From: Alphaproteobacteria bacterium
GTDB taxonomy: Bacteria > Pseudomonadota > Alphaproteobacteria > UBA11073
Assembly: GCA_965246945.1 (NCBI GenBank)
Contig: CBDFFW010000001.1
Span: 1,064,311 to 1,128,310, forward strand
Length of the DNA: 64,000 nucleotides
Direction of reading: 5' to 3'
The first letter of the stretch is position 1. Each line of letters starts with the position of its first letter. The position numbers were made by a program, and so were the translations under genes. The notes beneath the pieces are model-generated. The model was not told the DNA's origin, did no database searches, and saw only the letters and a list, made by a program, of their open reading frames with translations. Shown here in pieces: positions 6,344 through 45,910 of the stretch.

Positions 6344-6447
6344 CCTCATCTTGAGGAGCGCCATTGGCGCGTATCGAAGGATGTTTAATGAAGCCATATC
6401 GTTTAAGCAGCCTTCGATACGCAGCAAAACTGCTACTCAGGATGAGG
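6344..6447. repeat. Family A nested palindromic element, copy A1
   Basis: The outer inverted repeat is CCTCATCYTGAGKAG ... CTACTCAGGATGAGG and the inner one is GTATCGAAGGATG ... CAGCCTTCGATAC. The same architecture recurs five more times in the window. Confidence 0.85.
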
Positions 6448-6452
6448 TTTGG

Positions 6453-7586
6453 TTATAAAGGCAAAATATTGCTAGGCGGCTGTAATTGGCCTCGTACTTC
6501 TGCAAACGCTATTTGCTGCGTTGATTTATCCAGCTGATCAAGCGCGGCCAGAATTTTTTCTGCCGTGCAGTCCGCTTGCAGTAATTCGGGAATAACCAGT
6601 TTCCGCAAAACAATATTTACCAAATTGGCAAACGGCGTTTTGATTAAGTGTCGCGCCAGCCACACTGTTAAGGCATGCATTTGATAGGCAATCAGATGTG
6701 GGCAATTGGCCATTGCCAGTTCGAGTGTGACAGTACCCGAGGCCGCAATGGCCGCGCTGGCTGCGCGCATGGCTTGGTATTTTTCGGTGGGATTGCTAGT
6801 GATATAAATATTGGGCCGGTCGCCCATAATTTCACGCACATGGCTTTCCAGATGCGGCAGGGTGGGGATTAGTAGCCACGGCAAACTGCCATCGCGCTGG
6901 CATTGCTGCATGCGCCAGCTATCGGCGGCTTGTATAAAAATGGGCAGCAGTGCTGCTACCTCGCGTTGGCGGCTGCCAGGCAGTAAGCAAAGGGCATTCG
7001 CCGTGCCAATCACTAATTTCCGTTGCAGCGGGGCGGGATCGATTTTTTCGATATCCAATTGCGTGACGGGATGGCCGATAAAGCTCGCTAGCAAACTATA
7101 TTTTTCAAAATAGGGTGGCTCGAACGGAAATAAGCACCATAAATGATCGTATAATTGGGCAATTTTTTTGGCGCGGCCAGCCCGCCACGCCCAAACCGTG
7201 GGTGCCACTTCATGAATTAAGCGCAACCATTTTTTACGTAGCGGTTGTAACTTTTTGGCCAGGCGAAAGCTGAAATCCGGCACATCAATGGTAATCACAA
7301 TATCTGGCTGAAAAGCGGTGATTGCCGCCACGCAATCATTAATGCGCCGCAAGATAGCGGGAATACGCGGCACCACTTCTGCCAATCCCATTAGGGTTAG
7401 TTCACTATAATTAAACAGGCTGGTGGGCAAGCCAGCCGCCTGCATCTGCGGGCCGCCCACACCTTGCCAGGTAATATCCGGATATTGGGCATTCAGCTTG
7501 CGGATGGCATCTGCGCCCAAGGCATCGCCTGATGGTTCCCCAGCTAAAATAAAAATTTTCACGCTTTTTTGTAACACCAACCGCAA
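6453..7586 (-). CDS. lpxB: Lipid-A-disaccharide synthase
   Basis: 377 aa. IFILAGEPSGDALGADAIRKL, VGGPQMQAAG, TIDVPDFSFRLAKKL and VAPTVWAWRAGRAKKI align with the remembered E. coli LpxB motifs. Confidence 0.8.
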   Translation of the reverse strand: MRLVLQKSVKIFILAGEPSGDALGADAIRKLNAQYPDITWQGVGGPQMQAAGLPTSLFNYSELTLMGLAEVVPRIPAILRRINDCVAAITAFQPDIVITIDVPDFSFRLAKKLQPLRKKWLRLIHEVAPTVWAWRAGRAKKIAQLYDHLWCLFPFEPPYFEKYSLLASFIGHPVTQLDIEKIDPAPLQRKLVIGTANALCLLPGSRQREVAALLPIFIQAADSWRMQQCQRDGSLPWLLIPTLPHLESHVREIMGDRPNIYITSNPTEKYQAMRAASAAIAASGTVTLELAMANCPHLIAYQMHALTVWLARHLIKTPFANLVNIVLRKLVIPELLQADCTAEKILAALDQLDKSTQQIAFAEVRGQLQPPSNILPL

Positions 7587-7638
7587 ATTGCCACAGCAAT
7601 TATTTGAGCTTTCTGTCAGACAGGTTTAAGACAAAGTT

Positions 7639-9030
7639 ATGGCAAATGAATATGATGTAATTGTGATTGGGGCGGGGCCTGGCGGTTATGTCGCGGCAAT
7701 TCGCGCGGCGCAATTGGGCATGAAAACGGCTTGTGTGGAAATGGAGCCAAAACTGGGCGGCACTTGTCTGCGGATCGGTTGCATTCCATCGAAAGCATTA
7801 TTGCATGCTTCCGAGCGTTTTGATGAAACGCAGCATCATTTAGGGGCGCTTGGCATCGATGTGCCGAAGGCTATACTTAACTTGCCAATGATGATGAAAC
7901 ATAAATCTGATGTGGTGGAAGCCAATACCAAAGGTGTTGAGTTTTTGTTTAAGAAAAATAAAATTGATTGGCTAAAAGGCTTGGGCATTATCAAAGCGCC
8001 AGGCAAAGTAGATGTGGCGGGCACGGAATACAGCGCCAAACATATTATCATTGCGACCGGTTCCAGCGTGGTGCAATTGCCAGGTATTGAAGTTGATGAA
8101 CAACAGATTGTTTCTTCCACGGGTGCGCTAGCGCTGGGCGCTGTCCCAAAACATCTGGTGGTCATTGGCGGTGGTGTTATCGGTTTGGAACTTGGCACGG
8201 TTTGGCACCGCTTGGGTGCGGAAGTAACCGTAATTGAATATCTCGATCAAGTTCTGCCCGGTATGGATGGCGAAATACGTGTGGCAGCGAATAAAATGCT
8301 GACCAAACAGGGTTTAAAATTTATGCTGAGCACGAAAGTAACCGGCGCGAAGAAATCTGGCAAAAGCGTGGAACTTACCGTTGAAGCGGCGGCCGGTGGC
8401 AATGCCCAAAAAATAATGGCGGATGTGGTATTGGTGGCGATTGGCCGCAAACCGCATACCGGTGGTTTAGGTTTGGATAAAGCGGGCGTGAAAACGGATG
8501 AGCGTGGCCGCGTGGCCGTTGATGCGCATTACCAAACCAATATCCCAGGCATTTATGCCATTGGCGACGTTATCCATGGACCCATGCTGGCGCATAAGGC
8601 GGAAGAAGATGGCATGGCTTGCGTGGAAATGATTGCCGGCCAAAAACCGCATATTGATTATAATTTGGTACCAGGAGTGGTCTATACCATGCCGGAAATT
8701 GCCAGTATCGGCCAAACGGAAGAACAGCTGAAAGCCGCCGGTGTACAATATAAAGTGGGTAAATTCCCGTATCTAGCCAATGGCCGCGCCCGCGCAATGA
8801 ATGCCACTGAGGGTTTTGTCAAAATTCTGGCCGATGCGCAAACCGACCGGATTTTGGGCGGGCATATTTTGGGTGCCGAAGCGGGTAACTTGATCCACGA
8901 AATTGGCTTGGTAATGGAATTTGGCGGCTCTTCCGAAGATTTAGCGCGCACTTGTCATGCGCATCCAACCTTGGCTGAGGTGGTGAAGGAAGCGGCCTTG
9001 GCGGTTGAAGGCCGTCAGATTCATACCTAA
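7639..9030 (+). CDS. lpdA: Dihydrolipoyl dehydrogenase (E3 component)
   Basis: 463 aa. FAD motif VIVIGAGPGGY, redox-active disulfide GGTCLRIGCIPSKALL, NAD motif VVIGGGVIGLELG, and the C-terminal interface domain ending ...HAHPTLAE. Confidence 0.9.
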   Translation: MANEYDVIVIGAGPGGYVAAIRAAQLGMKTACVEMEPKLGGTCLRIGCIPSKALLHASERFDETQHHLGALGIDVPKAILNLPMMMKHKSDVVEANTKGVEFLFKKNKIDWLKGLGIIKAPGKVDVAGTEYSAKHIIIATGSSVVQLPGIEVDEQQIVSSTGALALGAVPKHLVVIGGGVIGLELGTVWHRLGAEVTVIEYLDQVLPGMDGEIRVAANKMLTKQGLKFMLSTKVTGAKKSGKSVELTVEAAAGGNAQKIMADVVLVAIGRKPHTGGLGLDKAGVKTDERGRVAVDAHYQTNIPGIYAIGDVIHGPMLAHKAEEDGMACVEMIAGQKPHIDYNLVPGVVYTMPEIASIGQTEEQLKAAGVQYKVGKFPYLANGRARAMNATEGFVKILADAQTDRILGGHILGAEAGNLIHEIGLVMEFGGSSEDLARTCHAHPTLAEVVKEAALAVEGRQIHT

Positions 9031-10175
9031 TGCAAAAATCCCTTCCCTTTGCTGCGCCGGAAGCTTATCCGCTGGCCAAGCCGGCCGAAATTATTGCCGA
9101 TTTAAAAGCAGGCAAGATGGTCATCATCACCGATGATGAAGACCGTGAAAACGAAGGCGATTTAATTATCGCCGCCGAGTTTGCCACTGCGGAAGCGGTT
9201 AATTTTATGGCCAAATTCGGCCGCGGGTTGATTTGTTTGGCCCTGGAATCGGCGCAGGTGCGCAAACTTGGCTTGCCCTTGGTTTTAAGCGAAACCGGCA
9301 GCGGGCGCAGCACCGCTTTCACAGTGTCGATTGAAGCGCGGGAAGGGATCACCACCGGCATTTCAGCCGCCGATCGTGCGACGACCATCGCGGCCGCCAT
9401 TCAGCCGGACGCGACCCCCAATCATATCAGCACGCCTGGCCATGTGTTTCCGTTAATGGCGCGGGATGGCGGCACGCTGGTACGGGCGGGGCATACCGAA
9501 GCTGCGGTCGATTTAGCGCGTGCGGCTGGGCTCATTCCAGCCGGTGTCATTTGTGAGATTATGAATGATGATGGGACCATGGCGCGCCTGCCGGATCTCA
9601 TCGGTTTTGCGCAATTCCATAATTTAAAAGTGGGCACCATTGCGGATTTAATCGCCTATCGCCGCCAGCATGAAAAGCAGATTGAATTGCTGTTAACCCA
9701 GCCATTGCAAAGCCAGTTTGGCGGGGATTGGACGCTTAAACTCTATGCTAACCGTGTCAGTTATGCCGAGCATGTGGTATTGATCAAGGGTGATATTAGT
9801 GGCGATGAGCCAGTGCATGTGCGCATGCATGCTTTGTCTATTTTAGGGGATATGCTGGGTGATATTCACAGTGCGGCTAGCGGTTCATTGCAAGCTGCCA
9901 TGGCGCAGATTGATGCCATCGGCCGTGGAGTGATTGTTTTGATTCGCGAATCAAATCCGCGTGCATTATCTGAAAGGCTAATCAACCGGCAAAATAATAC
10001 AGCCGGTCAAAATGAAACACAGCTGCGTGATTATGGCATCGGCGCGCAAATCCTGACGGATCTTGGCGTGCATGCAATGATTCTATTATCTAACCATCAC
10101 CGTCCTATTGCGGGATTGGAAGGCTATGGGTTAAAAGTATTAGGCTGGGAGTCGCTGCAAACATCAATTGCTTAA
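9030..10175 (+). CDS. ribB: 3,4-dihydroxy-2-butanone-4-phosphate synthase with a C-terminal GTP-cyclohydrolase-II-like domain that appears degenerate
   Basis: The N-terminal half carries the RibB signature (DDEDRENEGDLIIAAE..., HTEAAVDLARAAG). The C-terminal half has the RibA fold length but none of the zinc-ligand cysteines. The start overlaps the lpdA stop (TAATG). Confidence 0.8.
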   Translation: MQKSLPFAAPEAYPLAKPAEIIADLKAGKMVIITDDEDRENEGDLIIAAEFATAEAVNFMAKFGRGLICLALESAQVRKLGLPLVLSETGSGRSTAFTVSIEAREGITTGISAADRATTIAAAIQPDATPNHISTPGHVFPLMARDGGTLVRAGHTEAAVDLARAAGLIPAGVICEIMNDDGTMARLPDLIGFAQFHNLKVGTIADLIAYRRQHEKQIELLLTQPLQSQFGGDWTLKLYANRVSYAEHVVLIKGDISGDEPVHVRMHALSILGDMLGDIHSAASGSLQAAMAQIDAIGRGVIVLIRESNPRALSERLINRQNNTAGQNETQLRDYGIGAQILTDLGVHAMILLSNHHRPIAGLEGYGLKVLGWESLQTSIA

Positions 10176-10244
10176 GAATTTAGCAATCTGGTGCTGTTAG
10201 CTTAAATTGTTGATGCCAAGAACCGGCATAAGGGAGTTTAAAAT

Positions 10245-10709
10245 ATGTTACTTGATCTGCACTTAATGCTCATTCAGAGCAAGTTTAATCGCGATATTAC
10301 CGATCAGTTGGTCGATGGTGCGGTAAAGGTGCTGGAGCGCCATAAGGCCAGTTACGAGCATTACTTGGTGCCAGGTGCGTTTGAAACACCTGCCGCCATT
10401 CAATTTGCGATCAAAGGCATGGAATTTGCCAAAGCCCGCCGCCGTTTCAGCGGTTATATTCCGCTCGCTTGCATTATTAAAGGCGAAACCAAACATTTTG
10501 ACTTAGTCGCCGACGAAGTTTTCCGCGCGATTAGCGATCTTTCATTGCGTTACACTATTGCGATTGGCAATGGCATTTTAACAACTGATACTTATGACCA
10601 GGCGCTGGAGCGTGCGAATACCCAAGGCCGTAACTGGGGCGGTTTAGCCGCTGAAACCTGCATCGATATGATTGAGCTGAAAAGTAAATTTGCATTGCTG
10701 CGTGGTTAA
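10245..10709 (+). CDS. ribH: 6,7-dimethyl-8-ribityllumazine synthase, copy 1
   Basis: 154 aa lumazine-synthase fold (…GAFETPAAIQFAIKG…IPLACIIKGETKHFDLVADE…). Confidence 0.8.
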   Translation: MLLDLHLMLIQSKFNRDITDQLVDGAVKVLERHKASYEHYLVPGAFETPAAIQFAIKGMEFAKARRRFSGYIPLACIIKGETKHFDLVADEVFRAISDLSLRYTIAIGNGILTTDTYDQALERANTQGRNWGGLAAETCIDMIELKSKFALLRG

Positions 10710-10712
10710 TTA

Positions 10713-11177
10713 ATGTTGGGTGATTTGCATTTCATGATTATTCAAAGTGAAGCGAATCGTGAAATAACAGATAAACTAGCCGCTGGTGCGATTACCAAGA
10801 TTGAAGAAAATCACGGCAGCTATGAAATTTATTACGTTTCGCAATCACTAGAATTGGGTTTAGCCATCCAATATGCCATTAAAGGCTTGGAATTTACCAA
10901 AGCACGCCGCGCATTTTCCGGTTACATTCCACTGGCTTGCCTAGTTAAAGAGCAAACCACAAATTTTGATTTAATAGCGACTGAGGCGCTGCGTGGAATT
11001 ATTGATTTGGGCATGCGCTATACTATCGCGCTAGGTAATGGCTTATTGATTTGCGATACGGTTGAACAAGCACAAAAGCAAAGTAATTCTAATGCGCAAA
11101 ATTATGGGGCAATTGCCGCCAGCCAGTGTTTCCGAGCGATTGAATTAAAAAGCCAATTTTCACTGCTGCGTAAATAA
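10713..11177 (+). CDS. ribH: 6,7-dimethyl-8-ribityllumazine synthase, tandem paralogue (copy 2)
   Basis: Also 154 aa, roughly 50% identical to copy 1 over the full length, starting 3 nt after its stop. Confidence 0.8.
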   Translation: MLGDLHFMIIQSEANREITDKLAAGAITKIEENHGSYEIYYVSQSLELGLAIQYAIKGLEFTKARRAFSGYIPLACLVKEQTTNFDLIATEALRGIIDLGMRYTIALGNGLLICDTVEQAQKQSNSNAQNYGAIAASQCFRAIELKSQFSLLRK

Positions 11178-12476: not shown

Positions 12477-12508
12477 GGTTTTAGCATAATAAACAAAATT
12501 CCAGCTGA

Positions 12509-12766
12509 CTATTTTTCTAATAATTGTTGATTATATTTTGCCCAGCCTTGGCGGATAATTTCTAAATGTTCTTCCTTGATGTAACTTGGATAGCGGTAGT
12601 TGGGATAGGTGCCATTGCTATCGATAATTTTTTTTACTTCCGCATTCATTAAATTTTTTAAGATTTCAGGATCCGATAACAGATTGGATTTTGGCCCATT
12701 CATCTGGTTGGAAGATGGTGGTTGTGCCATCGCTTGATAATAAGGCAATTTGTTGAAAATTACCAT
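12509..12766 (-). CDS. Small hypothetical ORF overlapping the 3' end of the zeta-like gene
   Basis: The 85 aa ORF overlaps the upstream gene by 100 nt in another frame. An internal Met at 12649 would give a 46 aa product that does not overlap. No family recognised. Confidence 0.2.
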   Translation of the reverse strand: MVIFNKLPYYQAMAQPPSSNQMNGPKSNLLSDPEILKNLMNAEVKKIIDSNGTYPNYRYPSYIKEEHLEIIRQGWAKYNQQLLEK

Positions 12767-13250
12767 TATTCATATAAATGATCGTTTGGTTGCATAGCGG
12801 CATGAAAAGCTTGAATAAATAATGTAAGCCACGCTGATAACGGCGGCGGATATCTACTTCCGGCACATTATGGCCGCCTTTTAAAGCGCGGGTTTCAACG
12901 CGTTCAATCGCTAATTCGATATTTGGCACCCAAAGATAAATAAGTTGAATAATATATCCATTGGCTTTGGCTGTTTTTATTTTTTTAGCCAATGTCTGCG
13001 ATGATAAGGTTGTTTCGCTAACGAAACTTTGTTTCTGCGCAATCAACTCATCCATGCGTTTCAGCATGGTTTTGCCAGCGGTAATTGCGGCAGCCGCAGG
13101 GTCAAAAGGCGAAAGCCCTTTGGCGATTTCATCCGTATTTAAAAATAACGATGTGTTAAAAGCGGTTGGCAGTAAACCATAAGCTGCGGTTGTTTTACCC
13201 GCACCGTTGGGCCCAGCAATAATTGTCCAAACGGGTGATTGATCTATCAT
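12666..13250 (-). CDS. Zeta-toxin / AAA_33-like P-loop kinase
   Basis: Walker A IIAGPNGAGKTTAA at the N-terminus, Walker-B-like SFVSETTLS, and a size and layout typical of the zeta-toxin (UNAG kinase) family. No antitoxin-sized ORF lies upstream. Confidence 0.65.
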   Translation of the reverse strand: MIDQSPVWTIIAGPNGAGKTTAAYGLLPTAFNTSLFLNTDEIAKGLSPFDPAAAAITAGKTMLKRMDELIAQKQSFVSETTLSSQTLAKKIKTAKANGYIIQLIYLWVPNIELAIERVETRALKGGHNVPEVDIRRRYQRGLHYLFKLFMPLCNQTIIYMNNGNFQQIALLSSDGTTTIFQPDEWAKIQSVIGS

Positions 13251-13285
13251 TGGTCTTATTAACTAAAAAACCCGCATGGCGCAAA

Positions 13286-13451
13286 CTGACAGTGAAACTG
13301 TCATCCCGGACAAGAGAAGCGAAAGCGGAGCTTGAGTGGATCGCAGATCCGGGACCCAAAGAATATTACGTGCGCAGCAAAGCTGCACGCTTTATTTCTT
13401 TAGATCCCGGGTCAGCCGTTCGGCTATGCCTCACTGCCCGGGATGACAGTG
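13286..13451. repeat. Family B palindromic element, copy B1 (long-arm variant)
   Basis: The arms are GTCATCCCGG..N27..CCGGGATC on the left and its reverse complement on the right. It sits between the zeta-like gene and the rpsA 3' end. Confidence 0.8.
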
Positions 13452-13453: not shown

Positions 13454-15295
13454 TTATTCTTCGTCGGTTTCAGCCGTTTCACTGTCTTGGTTAGTTGTTT
13501 GGGCTTTGCGCAAGGCAGCACCTAAAATGCTACCTAAAGATGCGCCGGATTCGGATGAACCAAACTCGGCAATCGCCGCTTTTTCTTCGGCGAATTCATG
13601 CGCTTTGATTGATAGTTCGATGCGTTTGGCTGATTTCATCACTGCGATGATTTTGGCATCAACCTTATCGCCCACGGCAAAACGGTTGGTGCGCTGCTCT
13701 GCGCGGTCACGTGACAATTCAGCCCGTTTGATGATGCCGTAGATTTTGTCGTTCACCAACACTTCGATATTATCATCCCGCACGGCAGTTACCGTACCTG
13801 TTACCACATCACTTTTTTTCAGGGAGTTAATCGCGGTCATGGCCGGATCTTCACCCGTTAATTGCTTGATGCCAAGGGCAACACGTTCGCGGTCGGTATC
13901 GACATCCAAAACGCGGGCGGTGACTTGTGCACCTTTGGCGTAAGCTTTAACGGCTTCTTCACCCGTTTGATCCCATGACAAATCATTGATGTTGATCATG
14001 CCATCCACACCACCTGGCAGGGCGATGAACATCCCCAGTTCAGTAATGTTAACGAGCTCGCCGGTGTAATCCGAACCAGCAGGGTGGGTTTTGGCAAACT
14101 CAACCCATGGGTTATCGCTAAGTTGTTTGAGACCCAGGGAAATGCGGCGTTTTTCACGGTCGACTTCCAAAATTTGCGCTTCAATGGTTTGGCCTTCTTG
14201 CACAAATTTGGCTGGATCATTCTGCAATTTGCGATTCCAGGTCATTTCCGCGACATGGATCATACCTTCCATGCCATCGCCAAAAGTAACATAGGCGCCC
14301 AAATCGGTCACGCCGGTTACTTCACCTTTGATTTTTTGACCGACCTGTAATTGGTCATCTTTGCCTTCCCATGGATCGGCTTGCAATTGCTTCATGCCCA
14401 AGGAAATCCGTTGGCTTTCGCGGTTGAAACGAATCACCACGACTTCCACTTGCTGGCCAATGGTCAATGCATCGGATGGGTGGTTGAGACGCTGCCAAGA
14501 AATATCGGTCATATGCAATAAACCGTCAACGCCGCCCAGATCAATAAACGCGCCGTAATCGGTGATGTTTTTCACAGTACCGGTGAGTTGTTGGCCTTCA
14601 CGCAGGTCTGAAATCAATTCAGCCCGCGCATCCGCACGGGTTTCTTCAAGCACAGCGCGACGAGAGACAACGATATTGCCGCGCGCACGATCCATTTTCA
14701 AAAGCACGAAAGGCTGCGCTACATTCATCAATGGATTGGTATCTTTTAATGGACGGATATCTAATTGCGAGCCAGGCAAGAACGCAATCGCGCCGTTAAG
14801 ATCAACGGTAAAGCCGCCTTTGACTTTGCTGAAAATGGTGCCCATAACATGTTTGCCAGTAATATGGGCTTCTTCCAATTCCACCCAGATTTCTTCGCGG
14901 CGCGCCCGTTCGCGGGATAGCACCGCTTCGCCTTCTTTGCCTTCAATTTTGTCGACATAGACATCGACCAGGTCGCCAATCTGCACGGTAGTGGCATCGT
15001 CGCCCGCACCGAATTCACGGCGTGGTACGCGGCCTTCAGCTTTCATGCCAACATCGACCATTACGAAATCATGGGTGATATCGACAACAAGACCTTTAAC
15101 CACTGAGCCTTCAATCGAAGGGCCGCTGCCAAAATTTTCATTTAGCAGATTAGTAAATTTTTCTTTTTCTGCAGGAACGTAACCAGGTAATGGGAAATCC
15201 AAGCCATGGACATATTTACGGGTTTGGCCTTTGGCCACTTGAGATGCGCGCGGCATATTGGGGTGTCTTTCGTTTGGTTGTGTCATTCCGGACAA
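13454..15295 (-). CDS. rpsA: 30S ribosomal protein S1
   Basis: 613 aa with six S1 domains. Both ends of the ORF run into family B repeats, so the true start is probably the internal Met (MTQPNE..., near 15286) or later. Confidence 0.9.
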   Translation of the reverse strand: MSGMTQPNERHPNMPRASQVAKGQTRKYVHGLDFPLPGYVPAEKEKFTNLLNENFGSGPSIEGSVVKGLVVDITHDFVMVDVGMKAEGRVPRREFGAGDDATTVQIGDLVDVYVDKIEGKEGEAVLSRERARREEIWVELEEAHITGKHVMGTIFSKVKGGFTVDLNGAIAFLPGSQLDIRPLKDTNPLMNVAQPFVLLKMDRARGNIVVSRRAVLEETRADARAELISDLREGQQLTGTVKNITDYGAFIDLGGVDGLLHMTDISWQRLNHPSDALTIGQQVEVVVIRFNRESQRISLGMKQLQADPWEGKDDQLQVGQKIKGEVTGVTDLGAYVTFGDGMEGMIHVAEMTWNRKLQNDPAKFVQEGQTIEAQILEVDREKRRISLGLKQLSDNPWVEFAKTHPAGSDYTGELVNITELGMFIALPGGVDGMININDLSWDQTGEEAVKAYAKGAQVTARVLDVDTDRERVALGIKQLTGEDPAMTAINSLKKSDVVTGTVTAVRDDNIEVLVNDKIYGIIKRAELSRDRAEQRTNRFAVGDKVDAKIIAVMKSAKRIELSIKAHEFAEEKAAIAEFGSSESGASLGSILGAALRKAQTTNQDSETAETDEE

Positions 15296-15410
15296 GAGTA
15301 GCGAGGCGAAGGCCGAGCGGATCGCAGATCCGGAATCTAGGAGTTAATATGTGCGAAGCTTTGCTTCGCGCTTTGTTTAGTCACTAGATCCCGACTTTCG
15401 TCGGGATGAC
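15282..15410. repeat. Family B palindromic element, copy B2
   Basis: The left arm is the long variant (GTCATTCCGGACAAGAG...GATCCGGAATC). The right arm is the short variant (CACTAGATCCCGACTTTCGTCGGGATGAC). It sits between cmk and rpsA. Confidence 0.85.
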
Positions 15411-15436
15411 GGCCTTTGGCCGCCTGTGCAAAAACA

Positions 15437-20567: not shown

Positions 20568-20576
20568 TTGAATGGG

Positions 20577-20704
20577 TGATCCCGATAAAAATCGGGATCC
20601 AGTGATATAAATATGCGCGGTAGCGCTCAAGATAGTTTGTTTTGTGTCATGCTAATAAGCATGACGAGTTTGATCACTGGATTCCGGCTTTCGCCGGAAT
20701 GACG
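20577..20704. repeat. Family B palindromic element, copy B3
   Basis: GATCCCGATAAAAATCGGGATCCAGTG ... central GTCATGCTAATAAGCATGAC ... CACTGGATTCCGGCTTTCGCCGGAATGACG. Confidence 0.8.
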
Positions 20705-25005: not shown

Positions 25006-25012
25006 TCATGTC

Positions 25013-25099
25013 GTCATCCCAGCGCAAGCTGGCATCCAAACGCAACTAACAAATTCATTGTCGGTGCTGGACTAGATCCCGGCTTGCGCTGGGATGACG
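25013..25099. repeat. Family B palindromic element, short variant B4
   Basis: GTCATCCCAGCGCAAGCTGG ... CTAGATCCCGGCTTGCGCTGGGATGACG. It sits between convergent mltG and pyrF. Confidence 0.75.
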
Positions 25100-25827: not shown

Positions 25828-25934
25828 CCTCATCCTGAGTAGCCATGCAAAGTATGGCGTATCGAAGGATGCTTGACCAGAGTATAGCGTTGGAGCATCC
25901 CTCAATACGCGCTTTGCGCTACTCAGGATGAGGT
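25828..25934. repeat. Family A nested palindromic element, copy A2
   Basis: ACCTCATCCTGAGTAG...GTATCGAAGGATGC...GCATCCCTCAATAC...CTACTCAGGATGAGGT. Confidence 0.85.
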
Positions 25935-26717: not shown

Positions 26718-26823
26718 CCTCGTCCTGAGTAGGGCATCGCCCGTATCGAAGGATGCTCCAGCTATATACCTTGGTTAAGCATCCTTCGATACAAACGTTA
26801 AGGCGTTCTAATCAGAATGAGGT
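26718..26823. repeat. Family A nested palindromic element, copy A3 (right outer arm degenerate)
   Basis: CCTCGTCCTGAGTAG...GTATCGAAGGATGC...GCATCCTTCGATAC...CTAATCAGAATGAGG. Confidence 0.8.
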
Positions 26824-28098: not shown

Positions 28099-28195
28099 TT
28101 TCACTGTTATCCTCACTCGCTTTAAACCAAATTTAAATGGATATAAAATCATCGTTTCCATTGAAATATGGAAACGATGATTAAGAAATAATTAG

Positions 28196-34592: not shown

Positions 34593-34703
34593 CCTCATCC
34601 TGAGGAGCCAAGCATCGCTTGGTGTCTCGAAGGATGCTCTAGTGGAATTGCCAGCTTAAGCATCCTTCGAGACGCAGCTTATTAGCTGCTCCTCAGGATG
34701 AGG
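34593..34703. repeat. Family A nested palindromic element, copy A4
   Basis: CCTCATCCTGAGGAG...GTCTCGAAGGATGC...GCATCCTTCGAGAC...CTCCTCAGGATGAGG. Both arms carry compensatory changes, so the pairing is preserved. Confidence 0.85.
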
Positions 34704-35238: not shown

Positions 35239-35260
35239 TTATTTTTAAAGCTGATAATGA

Positions 35261-35290
35261 ACCCGCCGAAGATAACTCGGCGGGTTTTTT
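35261..35290 (+). terminator. Rho-independent terminator of hupB
   Basis: acccgccgaagataactcggcgggtttttt. Confidence 0.8.
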
Positions 35291-35293
35291 GTT

Positions 35294-35418
35294 GTCATCC
35301 CGACGAAAGTCGGGATCTAGTGGTATAATCTGCGCGAAGCGCTCAAAATTATTATTTTGCATTACGCTAAAGCATAATACTTTTTAATCACTGGATTCCG
35401 ACTTTCGTTGGGATGACG
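35294..35418. repeat. Family B palindromic element, copy B5
   Basis: GTCATCCCGACGAAAGTCGGGATCTAGTG ... CACTGGATTCCGACTTTCGTTGGGATGACG. Confidence 0.85.
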
Positions 35419-36256: not shown

Positions 36257-36346
36257 CCTCGTCCTGAGTATTGAAGGATGCTTAACTGGGGTATATCGCT
36301 GGAGCATCCTTCGATACGAACGCGCTGCGTTCTACTCAGGATGAGG
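36257..36346. repeat. Family A nested palindromic element, copy A5 (left inner arm shortened)
   Basis: CCTCGTCCTGAGTA-TTGAAGGATGC...GCATCCTTCGATAC...CTACTCAGGATGAGG. Confidence 0.8.
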
Positions 36347-37115: not shown

Positions 37116-37122
37116 TACTGAC

Positions 37123-37225
37123 CTCTTCCTGAGTAGCGCTGCAAGCGCGTATCGAAGGATGCCTATGGTTCCACCCTCATTAAGCATCCTTCGATACAAA
37201 TGCTGCGCGTTTTACTCAGGATGAG
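37123..37225. repeat. Family A nested palindromic element, copy A6
   Basis: CCTCTTCCTGAGTAG...GTATCGAAGGATGC...GCATCCTTCGATAC...TTACTCAGGATGAG. Confidence 0.85.
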
Positions 37226-37247
37226 ATTTGTTTAAGGTATAAAAATT

Positions 37248-39415: not shown

Positions 39416-39489
39416 GCGGGTGTAGTTCAATGGTAGAACTCCAGCCTTCCAAGCTGATTGTGAGGGTTCGATTCCCTTCACCCGCTCCA
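39416..39489 (+). tRNA. tRNA-Gly (anticodon TCC)
   Basis: The GCGGGTG acceptor pairs with CACCCGC, the anticodon loop is CTTCCAA, the T-arm is GGTTCGATTCCC and CCA is encoded. Confidence 0.9.
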
Positions 39490-39497
39490 TTTTTCGC

Positions 39498-40313
39498 ATG
39501 AAAAAGACCGCCCTTATCACCGGCAGTGCCAAACGAATTGGTGCGGTAATTGCGCAGCATTTGGCGGCCGCTGGTTATGATATTGTTATTCATTATCACC
39601 GCAGTGTTGTTGAAGCTAAGCAGTTGGCAGACCAATTAACCACACAATATCGGGTTAAAGCTTCAACAGTTGCCGCTGACCTAGCCAATTTGGTGCAAGT
39701 TGAAAATTTATGGCAGCAGATAATTGCGCAAGCAGGCCAAATTGATTTGCTGATAAATAATGCGGCCTGGTTCGATCCTGCCAATGATCCAGTTGAACAT
39801 AGCGATCCGCAAATTACTAAAACAGTCTGGCAAATTAATACGCATACACCGCAGCGTTTAAGTGAATTATTTGCCGCGCAAAACGGTTTAACAAATGGCC
39901 ATATCATTAATATTTTGGATTATCGGGTCTTGAAACCCAGTGGGAGCTTTCCAATTTATACCGCTAGCAAAACTGCTTTATGGCAAGTTACTCAGCAGCT
40001 TGCATTGGATTACGCGCCAACTGTTCGCGTAAATGCGTTGGCATTAGGCATGGCGATGCGGGCCAATGACCAAACGCAAGAACATTTTGAAAAGCATATT
40101 ATGGCAGCACCTTTGCAACGCAGCGGCGATGCGGATGAAATTGCCTGTGCTGTTTTAGCGTTAGAAAATCTATCGAGTGTGACCGGACAAATTTTGGCTT
40201 TGGACGGCGGTATGCATTTAACCAACGTCATCCCGACGAAAGTCGGGATCCAGTGGCCAACAGTACAATGCGAAGCTTTGTTCAAAAAATTAATTTTATT
40301 TGCATCACGCTAA
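39498..40313 (+). CDS. SDR-family oxidoreductase (pteridine/monapterin reductase-like); the last ~30 codons come from repeat B6
   Basis: TGSAKRIGAVIA cofactor motif and catalytic Y..K in ...YTASKTAL.... The SDR fold ends near ...ALDGGMHL. The remaining tail (…TNVIPTKVGIQWPTVQCEALFKKLILFASR) is encoded by the repeat. Confidence 0.7.
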   Translation: MKKTALITGSAKRIGAVIAQHLAAAGYDIVIHYHRSVVEAKQLADQLTTQYRVKASTVAADLANLVQVENLWQQIIAQAGQIDLLINNAAWFDPANDPVEHSDPQITKTVWQINTHTPQRLSELFAAQNGLTNGHIINILDYRVLKPSGSFPIYTASKTALWQVTQQLALDYAPTVRVNALALGMAMRANDQTQEHFEKHIMAAPLQRSGDADEIACAVLALENLSSVTGQILALDGGMHLTNVIPTKVGIQWPTVQCEALFKKLILFASR

Positions 40314-40360
40314 AGCGTGACAATTATAATCACTGGATCCCGACTTTCGTCGGGATGACG
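40227..40360. repeat. Family B palindromic element, copy B6, overlapping the 3' ends of two convergent CDS
   Basis: GTCATCCCGACGAAAGTCGGGATCCAGTG ... CACTGGATCCCGACTTTCGTCGGGATGACG. Read on either strand the arm encodes VIPTKVGIQ. Confidence 0.85.
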
Positions 40361-41079
40361 AGGCCTAAAACATCCTGCATATCGTATTGACCAGGCGGTT
40401 TATTTAAAACCCAGCTGGCGGCATGCACTGCGCCGCGCGCAAAAATGGCGCGGTCCGTGGCGCGGTGGGTTAGCTCTAGCCGCTCTTGCTGGCCGAAGAA
40501 AAAGGCTGTGTGTTCACCGGCAACGTCACCGCCGCGGGCGACACTGAAGCCGATATGGCCAGTTGCGCGCACACCAGTATGGCCATCACGAGCCGCAACT
40601 TTATTTGTTGCTAAATCTATATTCCGGCCCTTCGCAGCAGCCTGACCGAGCATTAATGCCGTACCACTTGGCGCATCAACTTTTTGATTGTGGTGTGTTT
40701 CAAAAATTTCAATATCGAATAATTCGGGCGGCAAGGTTTGCGCAGCGCGTTCGATCAGCCAGTTGAGTACATTCACGCCCAAGGAATAATTGGCGGCATA
40801 AACCACGGCTTGATTTTGCGCATAGTTTTTGATCAGCAGTTCCTGATCTGGGGATAATCCCGTGGTGCCAATCACCAGGCGGGGCTTGGTCGATTGTTGG
40901 GCAGCCCAATTTAATAAGGCTGCCGTTGCTTCCGGCGTGCTGAAATCAATGATTACAGCGCTGCCGGCCAACGCCGCCAAATCATCACCGCGGTCGACAG
41001 CTTTGAATAAATGATTGCCTGCCAGCTGAACCAATTGCTGGCCCATACGCCCCTTGGCACCGTGAATACTGATTTTCAT
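40330..41079 (-). CDS. dapB: 4-hydroxy-tetrahydrodipicolinate reductase
   Basis: MKISIHGAKGRMGQ NAD(P) motif and the DapB catalytic region (…FETHHNQKVDAPSGTAL…). The last 9 codons (VIPTKVGIQ) come from repeat B6. Confidence 0.85.
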   Translation of the reverse strand: MKISIHGAKGRMGQQLVQLAGNHLFKAVDRGDDLAALAGSAVIIDFSTPEATAALLNWAAQQSTKPRLVIGTTGLSPDQELLIKNYAQNQAVVYAANYSLGVNVLNWLIERAAQTLPPELFDIEIFETHHNQKVDAPSGTALMLGQAAAKGRNIDLATNKVAARDGHTGVRATGHIGFSVARGGDVAGEHTAFFFGQQERLELTHRATDRAIFARGAVHAASWVLNKPPGQYDMQDVLGLVIPTKVGIQ

Positions 41080-41169
41080 AAGCTATTGATGTGCGCAAAA
41101 AGCTGGTGTTGCAAATGATTTTCACCTACATAGAAAGACAATTAAACCACTTTAAAAGGACGAAAAGAC

Positions 41170-41712
41170 ATGCTGACCATTGGCGATACATTCCCAAGTT
41201 TTAAACTAAAAGGTGTGGTTTCGAGCGATCCCAAAACCGCGTTTAAAGATTTTTCGGCCGATAGTCACAAAGGCAAATGGGCGGTTTATTTTGCCTGGCC
41301 GAAAGATTTTACCTTTGTATGCCCCACTGAAATTGCCGCTTTCAGCAAAATGGCCAAGGAATTCGCCGACCGTGATTGCGTGGTTTATGGGTTGAGCACT
41401 GATAATGAATTTGTGCATTTGGCCTGGCGCACCCATCACGACGATTTAAAAAATCTGGCCATTCCCATGCTGTCTGATTTGAAGCGTGAATTGTCCGAAC
41501 AATTAGGTATTTTGCACAAAGAAGACGGTGTGTGTTTGCGTGCGACTTACATTGTGGATCCGGAACAAGTGATCCGTTTTGTTTCGGTTTACGATATGTC
41601 GGTTGGCCGTAATCCGCAGGAAGTTTTGCGGACATTGGATGCGTTGCAAAGCGATGAGCTGTGCCCATGCAACTGGCAAAAGGGCGAAGAGCATTTAAAG
41701 AAAGCAGCGTAA
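41170..41712 (+). CDS. ahpC: Peroxiredoxin AhpC (2-Cys)
   Basis: Peroxidatic Cys in …DFTFVCPTEI…, resolving Cys near the C-terminus (…ELCPCNW…), and a good RBS (AAAAGGA). Confidence 0.85.
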   Translation: MLTIGDTFPSFKLKGVVSSDPKTAFKDFSADSHKGKWAVYFAWPKDFTFVCPTEIAAFSKMAKEFADRDCVVYGLSTDNEFVHLAWRTHHDDLKNLAIPMLSDLKRELSEQLGILHKEDGVCLRATYIVDPEQVIRFVSVYDMSVGRNPQEVLRTLDALQSDELCPCNWQKGEEHLKKAA

Positions 41713-41715
41713 CCT

Positions 41716-42273
41716 ATGAACTTTGAAGAGCTGAAAGACAGCATCCCGGATTATGCCAAGGATCTCCGCCTAAATCTGTCATCTTTGCGGACACCCATTC
41801 CGGGAATGACTGAAACACAAGTCCTGGGCTGCATGCTGGCCTGTGCGATTGCTGCAAAAAATCCATTATTGGTGCAAGCGGTTTATGATGAAGCGCAAAG
41901 CCAATTGCGGCCAGAAGATATTGCTGGTGCGCAAACGGCCGCCGTATTGATGGCGATGAATAATGTGTATTACCGTTTCCTGGATCAATCTGGCCATGAA
42001 GATTACGGTAAGGCACGGGTAAATCTGCGTATGAATGGTATGGTTAGCCAACCGGCCCATGCCGCCGATTTCGAGTTATGGTCGCTCGCGGTTTCTGCGA
42101 TGAATGGATGCAGCACTTGTGTGAAATCACACCGCGCAAAACTGGAAGAAGAAGGGGTTGACCCTGAGATTATTCGCCAGGGCGCGCGCATTGCAGCCGT
42201 TATTCAAGCAGTGGCCACTGTGCTGACATCGCAAGATATAATGATTGCGCCGCAAATTGCTGAAGCGGCATAA
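41716..42273 (+). CDS. ahpD: Alkyl hydroperoxidase AhpD (carboxymuconolactone decarboxylase family)
   Basis: Catalytic …NGCSTCVKSH… motif. It starts 4 nt after ahpC, in the mycobacterial-type ahpC-ahpD arrangement. Confidence 0.8.
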   Translation: MNFEELKDSIPDYAKDLRLNLSSLRTPIPGMTETQVLGCMLACAIAAKNPLLVQAVYDEAQSQLRPEDIAGAQTAAVLMAMNNVYYRFLDQSGHEDYGKARVNLRMNGMVSQPAHAADFELWSLAVSAMNGCSTCVKSHRAKLEEEGVDPEIIRQGARIAAVIQAVATVLTSQDIMIAPQIAEAA

Positions 42274-42279
42274 GTTATT

Positions 42280-43233
42280 ATGTCGCATTCCCTGCAGCCA
42301 TCGGATCAACCGGATAGTATTGCCGATACGCACAAGCTGTTCGGGTTTAAATTTGCGGCCGATGTACCCGCTTTTAAAGAACCGAATGATTGGGTGCCAC
42401 CGGCGGATAACGCTTATCAATTTGACCGGCTGACCACCGAGGCGATTTTAAGCGGTTTAGCGTTTAACCGGCGCGTGCTGATTCAAGGTTTTCACGGCAC
42501 CGGAAAATCCAGTCATATCGAACAGATTGCCGCGCGGCTAAACTGGCCGTGTGTGCGGATTAATCTGGATAGCCATGTCAGCCGGATTGATCTGCTGGGC
42601 AAAGATGCGATTGTGCTGCAGGACGGCAAACAAGTAACGACGTTTCAAGAAGGTTTGTTGCCCTGGGCTTATCAACGGCCGGTGATTTTCGTGTTGGATG
42701 AATATGATGCGGGCCGGCCGGATGTGCTATTTGTGATTCAGCGGATTTTGGAAAGTGAAGGGCGGTTAACGCTGCTGGAAAAAAATCAGGTGATTGATCC
42801 GCATCCGTATTTTCGGTTATTTGCAACCGCGAATACGGTTGGTTTGGGTGATGCCAGCGGTATGTATCATGGTACCAATCCGTTAAACCAAGGACAGTTG
42901 GATCGCTGGCAAATTATCACCACATTAAATTATCTGGAACCGGAACACGAAACGGCGATTATCTTAAAAAAGCAGCCGAAACTAGATACGACGATGGTGC
43001 GCCGGATGGTGGAACTGGCGAATATGACGCGGACGGGTTTTGCGGCCGGTGATATCTCCACATTAATGTCACCACGGACAGTGCTGACTTGGGCGGAAAA
43101 CTATACTATTTTTAACGATCTCGCGCGCAGTTTTCAGCTCACTTTTGTCAACCGCTGCGATGAACTGGAACGCACGATTATCGCCGAATATTACCAGCGC
43201 TGCTTCGCCGAAGAATTGGCGCTTGCTGCTTAG
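42280..43233 (+). CDS. cobS: Aerobic cobaltochelatase subunit CobS (MoxR-like AAA ATPase)
   Basis: Walker A GFHGTGKSS, Walker B VIFVLDEYD and a CobS-typical length and C-terminal region. No cobT is adjacent. Confidence 0.8.
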   Translation: MSHSLQPSDQPDSIADTHKLFGFKFAADVPAFKEPNDWVPPADNAYQFDRLTTEAILSGLAFNRRVLIQGFHGTGKSSHIEQIAARLNWPCVRINLDSHVSRIDLLGKDAIVLQDGKQVTTFQEGLLPWAYQRPVIFVLDEYDAGRPDVLFVIQRILESEGRLTLLEKNQVIDPHPYFRLFATANTVGLGDASGMYHGTNPLNQGQLDRWQIITTLNYLEPEHETAIILKKQPKLDTTMVRRMVELANMTRTGFAAGDISTLMSPRTVLTWAENYTIFNDLARSFQLTFVNRCDELERTIIAEYYQRCFAEELALAA

Positions 43234-43242
43234 TTAGCGCCG

Positions 43243-43372
43243 TCATTCCGACGAAAGTCGGAATCCAGTGGTTGATAAGTGCAATGCATCGCATTGCTCA
43301 AACAATAATTATTTTGTGTCATGCTGCGCATGACGAGTCTGGGTCACTGGATCCCGATTTGCATCGGGATGA
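43243..43372. repeat. Family B palindromic element, copy B7
   Basis: GTCATTCCGACGAAAGTCGGAATCCAGTG ... central GTCATGCTGCGCATGAC ... CACTGGATCCCGATTTGCATCGGGATGACG. Confidence 0.85.
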
Positions 43373-45739
43373 CGATTCTGTTTCAATCAAATGTGCTAGG
43401 AAATCAGCAGGACGTTTGTTGGAATCTTGCGCCATCCATTGGTGATAGATAACGGTGGATGGCGTGAGACCTGGCAAAGTATTGGCTTCGATCAGCAGCG
43501 CTTGATCGGTTTTGATGTTAAAGAAAATATCGAGACGGGCGTAGTTTTGGATGCCGAGTGTCGCAGCCGCCTTTTCGATTTTGCTTTCAATTATTGTCCG
43601 TTGCGCGGCGCTGATGATACTGACCGGCGGCGGCGTTAAATTCACGCCTGTCCCACCTTGGAATTTTTCTTCCAAGCTTAAGACCGCATTGGCCGCCACC
43701 GTGATACTTGGCGGCAGGGATTGATATATACCGTTTTGCTCCAGAACACCAACGGTCAATTCAATCCAGCCAGTGTGGGCTTCATGTTTTAATTCTGTAC
43801 CGACAATTTGCAGGTGATCGGTTTCAATGTAAGGTTCTAAAATATACTTACTGCTGTGTGCGCTGGCGAGTTCGACAATTTCTGGTTGTTCGGCAAAACT
43901 ATGCGGCGGAAAAAAGCTGGCACCTGCACGCAGGAATTTGCCGTAAATGGCAAGTTGGACAGCATCGCTGAGTTTAATCACGCCAGCCGAACAGCCTTCA
44001 TCTTGTGGTTTTAGGATCAATTTTTGGGACTGCCAATTGGTGGTTAATTCCTGCCACAAGTCAACCCAATCGGTGCTGGCATTTTCCAGATCCGCTTGGC
44101 TTAGATGATGTTTGGGGCAGGCAGTTAACTGTTTATCGCGCAGGGCATCAATCGCAGCGCCGGTTGCGAGTTTATCCATGCATAATGCCGAAGCCGCTGA
44201 ACCCGAACCGTTATAATGCAGACCGCGCCCATCAAGCTCTGCCTGCAACCGGCCATCTTCACCCATGCCGCCATGCAAGCCTAAAAAGACAAAGGCATTT
44301 TGTGCTGCCGCTTTCTGTAAGAAGTTTTCTAATGATAAAGATTGCGGTTCGGCTAATGCGGCTTGCTGTTCGATTTCACTATAGCCAAGCGCCGGTAAAA
44401 TTTGTGGTAGATACGGCTTCAAACTGGCCGTGATACTGGCGCTATCGGCACAGCTGTGCATAATTTCTTCAACCGTGTGTTGCAGGGCATAAGCATAGGG
44501 CAATTGCCAGATGGTTTGCGCATCGGTGCCAAGTAGAAATAGCTGCGGTGAACAATTTGCCGTCTGTTGCAATTTCAGCCAAACATTGGTCCCGCTCATC
44601 AATGAAACTTGCCGCTCGGCCGTGCTGCCGCCACAAATTACGGCGACCAGCTCTGTGCCATTACGCGGTTGGGCCGGCGGTAAGACAACGCCATGCCGCT
44701 GGGCCGCACTGTTTAGAACATGGCGTAAAACCTGGCGGTGGGTGAGGCCGATGCGGGCGGCTTGTTGGAATAAAAAGCTGTTCTGTTCCATTCCGCTAAT
44801 CGGGTTTAAATCAGAAAATAAAACGGTGCCGTCTTTTAACCACCAGCCATCCAAGCGCGCAAAATCCTGCATGCCGAATAATTTAAAAATCTGCGCTGCC
44901 TGCTGGCGGATGGTGTTAATCACATTGGTAGGAAAACGCGGCGGGCAGAAATAAGCGGCTTGGTTGGTGGGTAGATATTTGCGGCGAAAATCGAAGATTT
45001 GATTGTCTTGGTAACTAACTGCGATTTCGCTGGGTAGCAATGCAACGGGTTCGCCGTCTGTGCCGGTTAGCACAACAATAGTAAATTCCTGGCCATCACA
45101 AAATGGTTCAATCATCACACGGCTATCATGCGTCTGGGCGAGCAGTTTATCGGCCGCAGCAGTGGCGGCTTCAGCGCTAGCCACCGAATGCACGCCAATG
45201 CTGCTGCCACCGGCCACGGGTTTAACGACAGCGCGCTGCAAATTATGTGTGCGCCAAAAAACGGGAATGGCCGTGCTTTCTTCCGCTTGGCTGACGGTGA
45301 GACTGGGCAGCGTGGCCAGGCCATTGGCCCGCAATATACTGGCCGCAACATCTTTGAAAAACATTTGGCGGCAGGCGGCGGCTGGGCTGGCAACATATGG
45401 AATATCATGCTGCTCTAAAAAATTCTGGAGCTGACCATCTTCGCCGTAAGCGCCATGAATGGCGGGGAAAACCAGATGGCAAGCTTGCAGTGCTTCAACC
45501 ACCTGTTTTTCATTCAAAACCTGTGCGGTTTCGGCGAGTTTGAAATCGAAATCAGAAGGCGTGTTTGAATAAAGTTGGGTGGTGGAAAGCCGATAAAATT
45601 TCAGTTTCTCATCCACATAAAATGGCACAATTTCGATATTGCTATCGGCGATATGATCAAGCAGGGAACGAGCAGAATTAAGGGAAATACCCCGCTCGGC
45701 CGATGGCCCGCCACAAATCACTGCAAGTTGAAATGACAT
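43319..45739 (-). CDS. Tandem fusion of two D-alanine--D-alanine ligase-like ATP-grasp modules (806 aa)
   Basis: Two N-terminal Ddl-type motifs (LAVICGGPSAERGISLNSA and VAVICGGSTAERQVSLMSG), each followed by an ATP-grasp region. The last ~17 codons (…ESSSRCKSGSSDPDSSCAA) lie inside repeat B7. Confidence 0.65.
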   Translation of the reverse strand: MSFQLAVICGGPSAERGISLNSARSLLDHIADSNIEIVPFYVDEKLKFYRLSTTQLYSNTPSDFDFKLAETAQVLNEKQVVEALQACHLVFPAIHGAYGEDGQLQNFLEQHDIPYVASPAAACRQMFFKDVAASILRANGLATLPSLTVSQAEESTAIPVFWRTHNLQRAVVKPVAGGSSIGVHSVASAEAATAAADKLLAQTHDSRVMIEPFCDGQEFTIVVLTGTDGEPVALLPSEIAVSYQDNQIFDFRRKYLPTNQAAYFCPPRFPTNVINTIRQQAAQIFKLFGMQDFARLDGWWLKDGTVLFSDLNPISGMEQNSFLFQQAARIGLTHRQVLRHVLNSAAQRHGVVLPPAQPRNGTELVAVICGGSTAERQVSLMSGTNVWLKLQQTANCSPQLFLLGTDAQTIWQLPYAYALQHTVEEIMHSCADSASITASLKPYLPQILPALGYSEIEQQAALAEPQSLSLENFLQKAAAQNAFVFLGLHGGMGEDGRLQAELDGRGLHYNGSGSAASALCMDKLATGAAIDALRDKQLTACPKHHLSQADLENASTDWVDLWQELTTNWQSQKLILKPQDEGCSAGVIKLSDAVQLAIYGKFLRAGASFFPPHSFAEQPEIVELASAHSSKYILEPYIETDHLQIVGTELKHEAHTGWIELTVGVLEQNGIYQSLPPSITVAANAVLSLEEKFQGGTGVNLTPPPVSIISAAQRTIIESKIEKAAATLGIQNYARLDIFFNIKTDQALLIEANTLPGLTPSTVIYHQWMAQDSNKRPADFLAHLIETESSSRCKSGSSDPDSSCAA

Positions 45740-45783
45740 GCGTTAATGCTAATAATGTTAAAGGCTTTTGCCTAGCAAAAGCC

Positions 45784-45910
45784 GTCATCCCGACGGAAGT
45801 CGGGATCTAGTGATAAATTAATGAATCATGCTGGCATGATACAAAATTATTCTTTTTTGAGCGCTACGCGCAGTTTTAGTCACTGGATCCCGACTTTCGT
45901 CGGGATGACG
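45784..45910. repeat. Family B palindromic element, copy B8
   Basis: GTCATCCCGACGGAAGTCGGGATCTAGTG ... central ATCATGCTGGCATGAT ... CACTGGATCCCGACTTTCGTCGGGATGACG. Confidence 0.85.

Follow-up and report, generated by a model that had tools for sequence, protein, structure and literature searches.

Two families of palindromic intergenic repeats in an alphaproteobacterial genome and their relation to the CGTC-tagged REP superfamily

The locus and its repeats

The window analyzed here is a 64,000-nucleotide stretch of an alphaproteobacterial genome (lineage UBA11073; assembly GCA_965246945.1, contig CBDFFW010000001.1, positions 1,064,311 to 1,128,310 of the forward strand), whose genes are alphaproteobacterial housekeeping genes: sdhA, lpxB, lpdA, ribH, hisS, rpsA, pyrF, psd, lon, hupB, lipB, phoR, dapB, and ahpC. 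It also carries 14 palindromic elements of two families, A and B. The elements belong to a known superfamily, the repetitive extragenic palindromic (REP) sequences with a CGTC tag, which comprises Rickettsia palindromic elements (RPEs) and dRS3 of Neisseria; family A joins it as a relative outside its four published families. Both families are unusually dense in this genome. Each copy consists of two hairpin arms placed head to head around a spacer, with an unpaired tag at the outer end of each arm.

All 14 copies that had been proposed in a sequence-only reading of the window are present, with boundaries off by 1–13 nt. They were recovered by direct-repeat finding, folding, and alignment, and nhmmer profiles of both families return exactly the six A and eight B copies claimed, with no further copy of either family in the 64 kb. 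The 24-nt B arm has 9 matches in the window at three or fewer mismatches, compared with 0.00 expected, and the 15-nt outer repeat of family A has 12, compared with 0.43. A strong nested hairpin is predicted for every copy (−48 to −77 kcal/mol). The copies are listed below in window coordinates; CGTC-1 denotes the first of the published CGTC families.

A1, 6344..6447, minus strand: family-A head-to-head dimer, 6 nt past the lpxB stop codon, in a unidirectional gap; left arm of the GAGGAG type, right arm of the GAGTAG type
A2, 25828..25933, plus strand: family-A dimer in the reference orientation, 8 nt past the psd stop codon
A3, 26718..26822, minus strand: family-A dimer, the sole copy in a divergent gap (psd and a LOG-family gene)
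A4, 34593..34703, plus strand: family-A dimer, 24 nt past the lon stop codon
A5, 36257..36346, plus strand: family-A dimer downstream of a tRNA gene, left apical hairpin deleted
A6, 37122..37226, minus strand: family-A dimer in the convergent gap between a cinA-like gene and an open reading frame (ORF) of 260 aa
B1, 13298..13448, no strand assigned: head-to-head dimer of two long-loop arms tagged TGTC
B2, 15281..15411, minus strand: heterodimer of a long-loop arm (15281–15336) and a canonical CGTC-1 arm (15388–15411), upstream of rpsA
B3, 20575..20704, plus strand: CGTC-1 head-to-head dimer with central module, in a convergent gap
B4, 25012..25099, no strand assigned: short CGTC-1 head-to-head dimer with a 40-nt spacer and without the central module, in a convergent gap beside pyrF
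B5, 35293..35418, plus strand: CGTC-1 head-to-head dimer with central module, in the reference orientation, 5 nt past the terminator-like hairpin of hupB
B6, 40226..40360, plus strand: CGTC-1 head-to-head dimer overlapping the 3′ ends of a short-chain dehydrogenase/reductase (SDR) ORF and of dapB
B7, 43241..43374, plus strand: CGTC-1 head-to-head dimer overlapping the 3′ end of an 806-aa Ddl-like ORF
B8, 45783..45910, minus strand: CGTC-1 head-to-head dimer with central module, in a unidirectional gap, the last copy before a packed gene cluster

Family B

The family-B arm reads CGTC, ATCCCGAC, GAAA, GTCGGGAT, and CCAG. Its tag is CGTC in 11 of the 13 canonical short-loop arms, TGTC in one, and GGTG in another. 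The stem has 8 bp, starts with an A-T and a T-A pair, and occurs in the variants ATTCCGGC, ATTCCGAC, and ATCCCGAT; it encloses a 4-nt loop (GAAA, GCAA, GGAA, or AAAA) and is followed by CCAG, CTAG, or CCAA, which fit a CCA-like tail. A third arm type with a long loop, represented by both arms of B1 and the left arm of B2, bears a TGTC tag in all three instances. The stems of B1, which lies between a gene for a zeta-toxin-like kinase and the 3′ end of rpsA, have the form ATCCCGG...CCGGGA and surround inner hairpins. In all eight copies the tags face outward, and the spacers measure 40–75 nt.

These are the properties of a known group. CGTC-tagged REPs were described by Di Nocera, De Gregorio, and Rocco (2013, BMC Genomics 14:522, PMC3733652), according to whose text a terminal unpaired CGTC, often replaced by TGTC or CCTC, precedes a stem of 8–9 bp in which the first pairs are almost always A-T and T-A, a loop of 4–5 nt, and a tail approximating CCA. 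Family 1 combines an 8-bp stem with a 4-nt loop. In the same account, CGTC REPs mostly form head-to-head dimers with the tags outward and 20–100 bp apart, lie chiefly past gene 3′ ends and at times within ORFs, and differ widely in family size between species. They favor alphaproteobacteria, and their hosts and families include Rickettsia (RPE-4, RPE-6), Wolbachia, Micavibrio, and Neisseria (dRS3). That paper associates no transposase with them and treats the mobilizing enzyme of the superfamily as not known.

The CGTC-1 members named there, i.e., dRS3 of Neisseria, RPE-6 of Rickettsia conorii, and a Micavibrio family, share tag, stem, loop, and tail with the B arms as well as the head-to-head arrangement, the location at 3′ ends, and the occasional read-in from ORFs. 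For the B arms, no transposase was found among the scanned ORFs of the window, and none recurs near 119 related loci. Even the long-loop arms of B1 and of the left half of B2 have a counterpart, since the 2013 text mentions arms with other loop lengths. Unlike CGTC-1 REPs elsewhere, the B dimers contain a conserved and oriented central module of ~70 nt composed of two mini-hairpins and an AT-rich palindrome. This module was not found in other genomes, where the best score of the family-B profile is 56 bits as against 100–125 inside the window. The density is likewise high, with 8 B copies in 33 kb of a ~1.8-Mb genome. By sequence comparison with the published text description, family B is a CGTC-1 REP dimer with a lineage-specific center. 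The earlier statement that neither consensus matches a known element is therefore to be abandoned: the B arm has the features given for CGTC-1 in the published text, and the A arm is a widespread relative.

No description of either element came up in a full-text literature search with the repeat sequences themselves; its sole on-target match was a CGTC-1-like string in a paper on Neisseria gonorrhoeae. Strings matching the repeats are absent from the supplements to Di Nocera et al., and the literature on Rhizobium mosaic elements (RIME) yielded no usable consensus. A loose scan of the window for AT-first hairpins with an NNTC tag returned mostly noise and added no copies.

Family A

The family-A arm is longer and follows the order CCTC, ATCCT, GAGKAG, a variable hairpin, GTMTCGA, AGGAT, and GC. 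Within its 44–50 nt, a 5-bp basal stem leads to a 3 × 4 asymmetric internal loop (GAG/TCGA), two more pairs with a bulged G, and an apical helix of 4–7 pairs with free sequence; the tail is GC(T). In the window, 11 arms carry a CCTC tag and one carries TCTC, and all six copies are head-to-head dimers. Of 213 related arms, 182 are headed by CCTC and 21 by CGTC, and the basal stem is mostly ATCCT/AGGAT. Both arms of A4 belong to the GAGGAG/GTCTCGA subtype, the majority type in metagenomes. A5 looks like the product of a slippage deletion within the element, the gap left by its missing apical hairpin lying exactly between two GTA direct repeats (GAGTA|TTGA).

Family A has the tag (CCTC being a common variant), the AT-first stem, the head-to-head arrangement, the frequent heterodimers, and the alphaproteobacterial hosts in common with CGTC-2, CGTC-3, and CGTC-4 as these are portrayed in the 2013 text. 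The dimensions of the arm, however, fail all three, for which a stem of 8–9 bp, a loop of 4–5 nt, and a CCA tail are published. As the arm lies outside the four families of that paper, its assignment to the CGTC group extends the published scheme. Judged by sequence features and with this reservation, family A appears to be a widespread, unnamed relative within the CGTC superfamily, distinguished by a composite stem. An assignment to the GTAG-type REPs on the strength of the motif GAGTAG was considered and rejected: the motif is internal, and more than 90% of the related arms have GAGGAG instead.

A one-arm pattern for family A occurs in at least 120 metagenome contigs, mostly GC-rich and soil-like, and blastn detects similar dimers in two Methylobacterium species, M. 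bullatum (at 40 or more places) and M. aquaticum, and in replicons of Roseibium. Among the metagenome arms, at least four compensated types of basal stem (ATCC, ATGG, ACCC, and ATGC) can be told apart. In the GC-rich metagenome dimers, the central loop is also conserved (GCTCCAG...TCCGGAGCC...CTGGAGC), and the outer palindrome is extended (CTCAGCCCTC...GAGGGCTGAG).

The constrained structure and the copied unit

Compensatory substitutions in A4 had been taken as a sign that secondary structure is under selection. The substitutions exist, but they concern two of the 29 inter-arm pairs of a single copy and are not significant, as 65 of 500 shuffles do as well. Across the six A copies of the window, the inter-arm stems are 92% paired and two-sided changes are confined to these two pairs of A4, where an intra-arm pair accommodates the four substitutions just as well. 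Of the broader claim, the constraint on pairing holds; its seat is the single arm rather than the long nested inter-arm stems.

This follows from a set of 89 distinct A-type arms in which the tested positions had been left free by the search pattern. Two basal pairs swap between C-G and G-C (49 versus 37 arms and 54 versus 31 arms, respectively), while the mixed combinations ATCC/ACCAT and ATGG/AGGAT are absent from all 89. At the N-N′ pair, G-C, C-G, and T-A are all represented. Four apical pairs are formed in 91–98% of the arms and run through all Watson-Crick types, as compared with 20–26% pairing in shifted registers. A partner arm is present for 92 of 128 pattern-matching A arms, and ~35 of these 92 (about 40%) face a partner of another stem type (ATGG, ACCC, ACGG, or ATGC). 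Such unlike partners break the inter-arm pairing at four positions and spare the intra-arm pairing, so the long inter-arm stem is not conserved.

Family B behaves in the same way. The two arms of B3 differ (ATCCCGAT as opposed to ATTCCGGC) and are each self-complementary, and B7 has compensated stem variants in both arms (ATTCCGAC/GTCGGAAT and ATCCCGAT/ATCGGGAT). Altogether, the B arms of the window contain five compensated stem substitutions that the partner arm does not match. The constrained folding unit is thus the hairpin of the single arm. A tRNA-like or cloverleaf functional RNA was also considered and rejected, since heterotypic dimers would break its junction stems and the elements match no RNA family.

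Copying, in contrast to folding, involves the pair. The copies score 100–125 bits with their family profile in one orientation and 50–80 bits in the other, a preference of 30–50 bits. In this genome, the copied unit is the complete dimer with its asymmetric center.

Placement in the genome

Six of the 14 copies lie in convergent gaps, seven in unidirectional gaps, and one in a divergent gap. The 13 copies outside the divergent gap mostly sit directly past gene 3′ ends, overlapping a stop codon or no more than ~25 nt away from it. The earlier statement that hardly any intergenic gap from 6 to 46 kb is free of an element is roughly right, with 14 of ~19 gaps of at least 80 bp occupied. Most of the length of an occupied gap is element, and the gaps of this size that are empty are mostly divergent promoter gaps.

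Some copies contribute to coding sequence. The SDR ORF (39498–40313) takes its last 29 codons from B6, and dapB (40330–41079) its last 10, stop codons included. The arm-encoded peptide VIPTKVGIQ appears in both tails; it ends DapB and is followed by 20 more residues in the SDR. B7 provides the last 18 codons and the stop codon of the Ddl-like ORF (43319–45739). In all three read-in ORFs, the Pfam domains stop short of the element-encoded tails. At the other end of a gene, the mechanically called start of the pyrF ORF extends into A2. The N-terminal 350 residues of the 806-aa ORF resemble D-Ala-D-Ala ligase, with several matched stretches.

The elements stop abruptly at 46 kb, as had been reported, but this is no boundary of element activity. 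The simplest reason is that the gene cluster beginning there (46652–60797) leaves little intergenic space: ~15 plus-strand genes are tightly packed or overlapping and almost gapless. The cluster has a GC content of 42–45%, compared with 47–53% upstream, and includes genes for a two-component system, a class-III aminotransferase, an arginase-family protein, a fatty-acid desaturase, and a FemAB-like protein. Possibly the cluster is an acquired island; the ORF after it, at 60959–62146, encodes a DNA methylase.

Directly after hupB, positions 35259–35287 form the strongest intrinsic-terminator-like hairpin between 25 and 45 kb (11 pairs and then a T-run). As it ends 5 nt before B5, the REP dimer was added behind an existing terminator. 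Another convergent gap holds a perfect palindrome at 28147–28182 (AATCATCGTTTCC-ATTGAAATAT-GGAAACGATGATT) that is unrelated to A and B. Elsewhere in the window, two tandem lumazine synthase (ribH) paralogues of 154 aa each stand 3 nt apart at 10245–11177. Between sdhD and sdhA lies an AT-rich insert of 573 bp (1195–1767), where relatives have a gene spacing of ~10 nt; its minus strand, from 1649 down to 1201, contains an ORF of 149 codons that is interrupted once, by an in-frame TAG at codon 29, and that possibly represents an inserted gene turned pseudogene.

Distribution of the elements

A degenerate pattern for the CGTC-1 arm matches more than 119 stretches in species-representative genomes of many phyla, with ~0.3 chance matches estimated. 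Among the matches listed are Sphingomonas, Methylotenera, and Micavibrio, as well as metagenome-assembled genomes (MAGs) labeled Microgenomates, Daviesbacteria, Magasanikbacteria, Peribacteria, Saccharibacteria, Zixiibacteriota, Vampirovibrionales, Synergistaceae, Ignavibacteria, Bacteroidales, and Dehalococcoidia, the last including two chromosome-level assemblies; all these labels are as given on the MAGs, with contamination unchecked. On that footing, a near-identical CGTC-1 hairpin is found in bacteria of the candidate phyla radiation, Chloroflexi, Bacteroidota, and others. The spread is wider than that of 2013, when CGTC REPs were reported from five phyla in the text of PMC3733652. In viral contigs, the two arm patterns occur in only 2 and 5 contigs, and a phage origin of the elements was considered and set aside as unlikely on these numbers.

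Close relatives are nearly devoid of the elements. SdhA of the window is 84–86% identical to its metagenomic relatives and ~80% identical to the proteins of Micavibrio and Azospirillaceae. About 100 kb from the relatives at 84–86% contains no A or B dimer and one single CGTC-1 hairpin, and the region downstream of sdhA in these relatives has no synteny to the window. The near-absence in close relatives indicates a lineage-specific burst.

Mobility and rival explanations

The head-to-head, tag-outward dimers of both families are probably CGTC REPs and would be non-autonomous elements, mobilized in trans as hairpin DNA. The earlier comparison with the REP- and RPE-style colonization of intergenic DNA is borne out to the extent that palindromic elements sit in the gaps as head-to-head REP dimers. 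By analogy with the REP doublets known as REPINs, the dimers would move as single-stranded hairpin DNA, served by an enzyme in trans that is encoded elsewhere, or has since been lost, and that would read the tag and the basal stem while being indifferent to the apex. Copies would be retained at sites that tolerate an insertion, directly after stop codons, and effects on mRNA 3′ ends would be secondary.

REPINs are reportedly GTAG-tagged REP doublets mobilized by a REP-associated tyrosine transposase (RAYT), as Bertels and Rainey are said to have proposed in 2011. They resemble the elements of the window in that an inverted pair of hairpins and its spacer are copied as one and without target-site duplications, and further in their compensatory hairpin changes, intergenic location, and lineage-specific expansion. 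The tags differ, being GTAG in REPINs and CGTC or CCTC here, with no GTAG in the B arms. REPINs also have their RAYT, whereas neither the scanned ORFs of the window nor the surroundings of related loci contain a RAYT or Y1 transposase. The Rickettsia palindromic elements (Ogata et al., via the 2013 paper) are likewise palindromic, reside in a small alphaproteobacterial genome, and can enter coding sequence. The overlaps in the window involve only ORF 3′ ends (B6 and B7; three ORFs) and are not internal in-frame insertions. Since RPE-4 and RPE-6 are themselves CGTC REPs according to the same paper, the RPEs represent the same superfamily and not a parallel case.

A different origin is that of classical miniature inverted-repeat transposable elements (MITEs), deletion derivatives of insertion sequences (ISs) that are moved by a DDE transposase through terminal inverted repeats and leave target-site duplications. 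Two inverted arms at the ends do resemble terminal inverted repeats, and 90–165 bp is within the MITE size range. Correia and ERIC, two classical MITEs, are similar to the elements here in length (~100–150 bp), inverted ends, intergenic location, and strong predicted hairpins. Classical MITEs, however, have target-site duplications, and none was found at any of the 14 copies: the best direct repeats flanking them measure 0–5 nt and are inconsistent in sequence as well as in offset. This agrees with the earlier view that the elements are not IS or MITE derivatives of this kind, for which such duplications had been named as the refuting observation. Moreover, each supposed terminal repeat is an autonomous, covarying hairpin, and outside the window arms often occur singly or in heterotypic pairs. 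Pfam and NCBIfam scans of a set of window ORFs that includes all those of ~150–195 aa revealed no transposase and no Y1_Tnp match. No recurrent transposase was found among ~2,900 clustered neighbor ORFs around 239 related loci either, where the recurrent neighbors are ABC ATPases, SDRs, permeases, and TctC, all of them common housekeeping families, and no parent IS with the same ends was seen in the window or at related loci. A MITE origin is accordingly very improbable. About as improbable is the notion that the repeats are DNA sites for another system, i.e., targets of integrating elements or binding sites for a nucleoid or topology protein. The high conservation of tag and basal stem over distant taxa would suggest a protein partner, and the 2013 text reports that REPs are IS targets in several genera and that dRS3 is said to be an integration target in Neisseria. 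Yet nothing is inserted in or beside any of the 14 copies, the arm patterns are as scarce in viral contigs as noted above, and such a role alone would not explain 14 copies in 40 kb.

A role as RNA selected by the host deserves somewhat more weight, though it too is unlikely. The elements would then be hairpins in 3′ untranslated regions that end transcription or shield mRNA from 3′ exonucleases, a role proposed for REPs in other bacteria according to the background section of PMC3733652. Such a function would account for the strong covariation of the pairing and for the 13 of 14 copies in convergent or unidirectional gaps, mostly near or over stop codons. No U-tract follows the stems, however, and a terminator scan calls no element stem; the elements are not intrinsic terminators. 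A terminator-like hairpin of its own already follows hupB, right ahead of B5. The elements do not keep to one orientation with respect to the gene upstream of them, a divergent gap holds one copy, and another lies upstream of rpsA. Close relatives do without the elements, and the wide variation in family size between species that the 2013 text describes points the same way. No Rfam family matches the repeats: at the gathering score, the covariance models find only two tRNAs in the window and only a TPP riboswitch in 15 related loci, and a permissive scan gives only noise.

Several points weigh against reading the repeats as mobile CGTC REP dimers. Movement is unobserved, and mobility is argued from copy number, patchy distribution, and analogy. 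No mobilizer of CGTC REPs is known in the published account, and the route through single-stranded DNA is taken over from the model of GTAG REPs and RAYT. The covariation expresses a constraint on pairing, which would look the same in DNA and RNA. With respect to membership, the match of family B to CGTC-1 is to the text description in the 2013 paper and not to its consensus sequences, while for family A the label stretches a scheme whose published stem, loop, and tail dimensions its arm misses.

A further step would be to regard the A arm as a fifth CGTC architecture, widespread in alphaproteobacteria, and to conclude from this and from the breadth of CGTC-1 that one conserved enzyme acts in trans on the tag and the hairpin base. 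Its grounds are the invariant tag, base, and internal loop of the A arm next to a free apex, together with the CGTC-1 hairpin in distant phyla. We offer this generalization tentatively and consider it rather doubtful.

Significance

For genome annotation, the elements explain inflated intergenic gaps, false N-terminal extensions (pyrF and rpsA), and REP-encoded protein tails such as VIPTKVGIQ in the SDR and DapB. Covariation settles which structure is constrained, namely the single arm and not the long stem of the dimer. How CGTC REPs multiply and stay conserved across distant bacteria without a known transposase is, on the evidence of the published account, a long-standing question. The density of the elements in this genome as compared with its relatives, the constraint on the single arm, the apex that is always paired and yet free in sequence, and the breadth of the CGTC-1 hairpin all bear on the mobilization of CGTC REPs. 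Because the genome is small and element-dense and its relatives are nearly element-free, it is a good place to seek the mobilizing gene by comparison.

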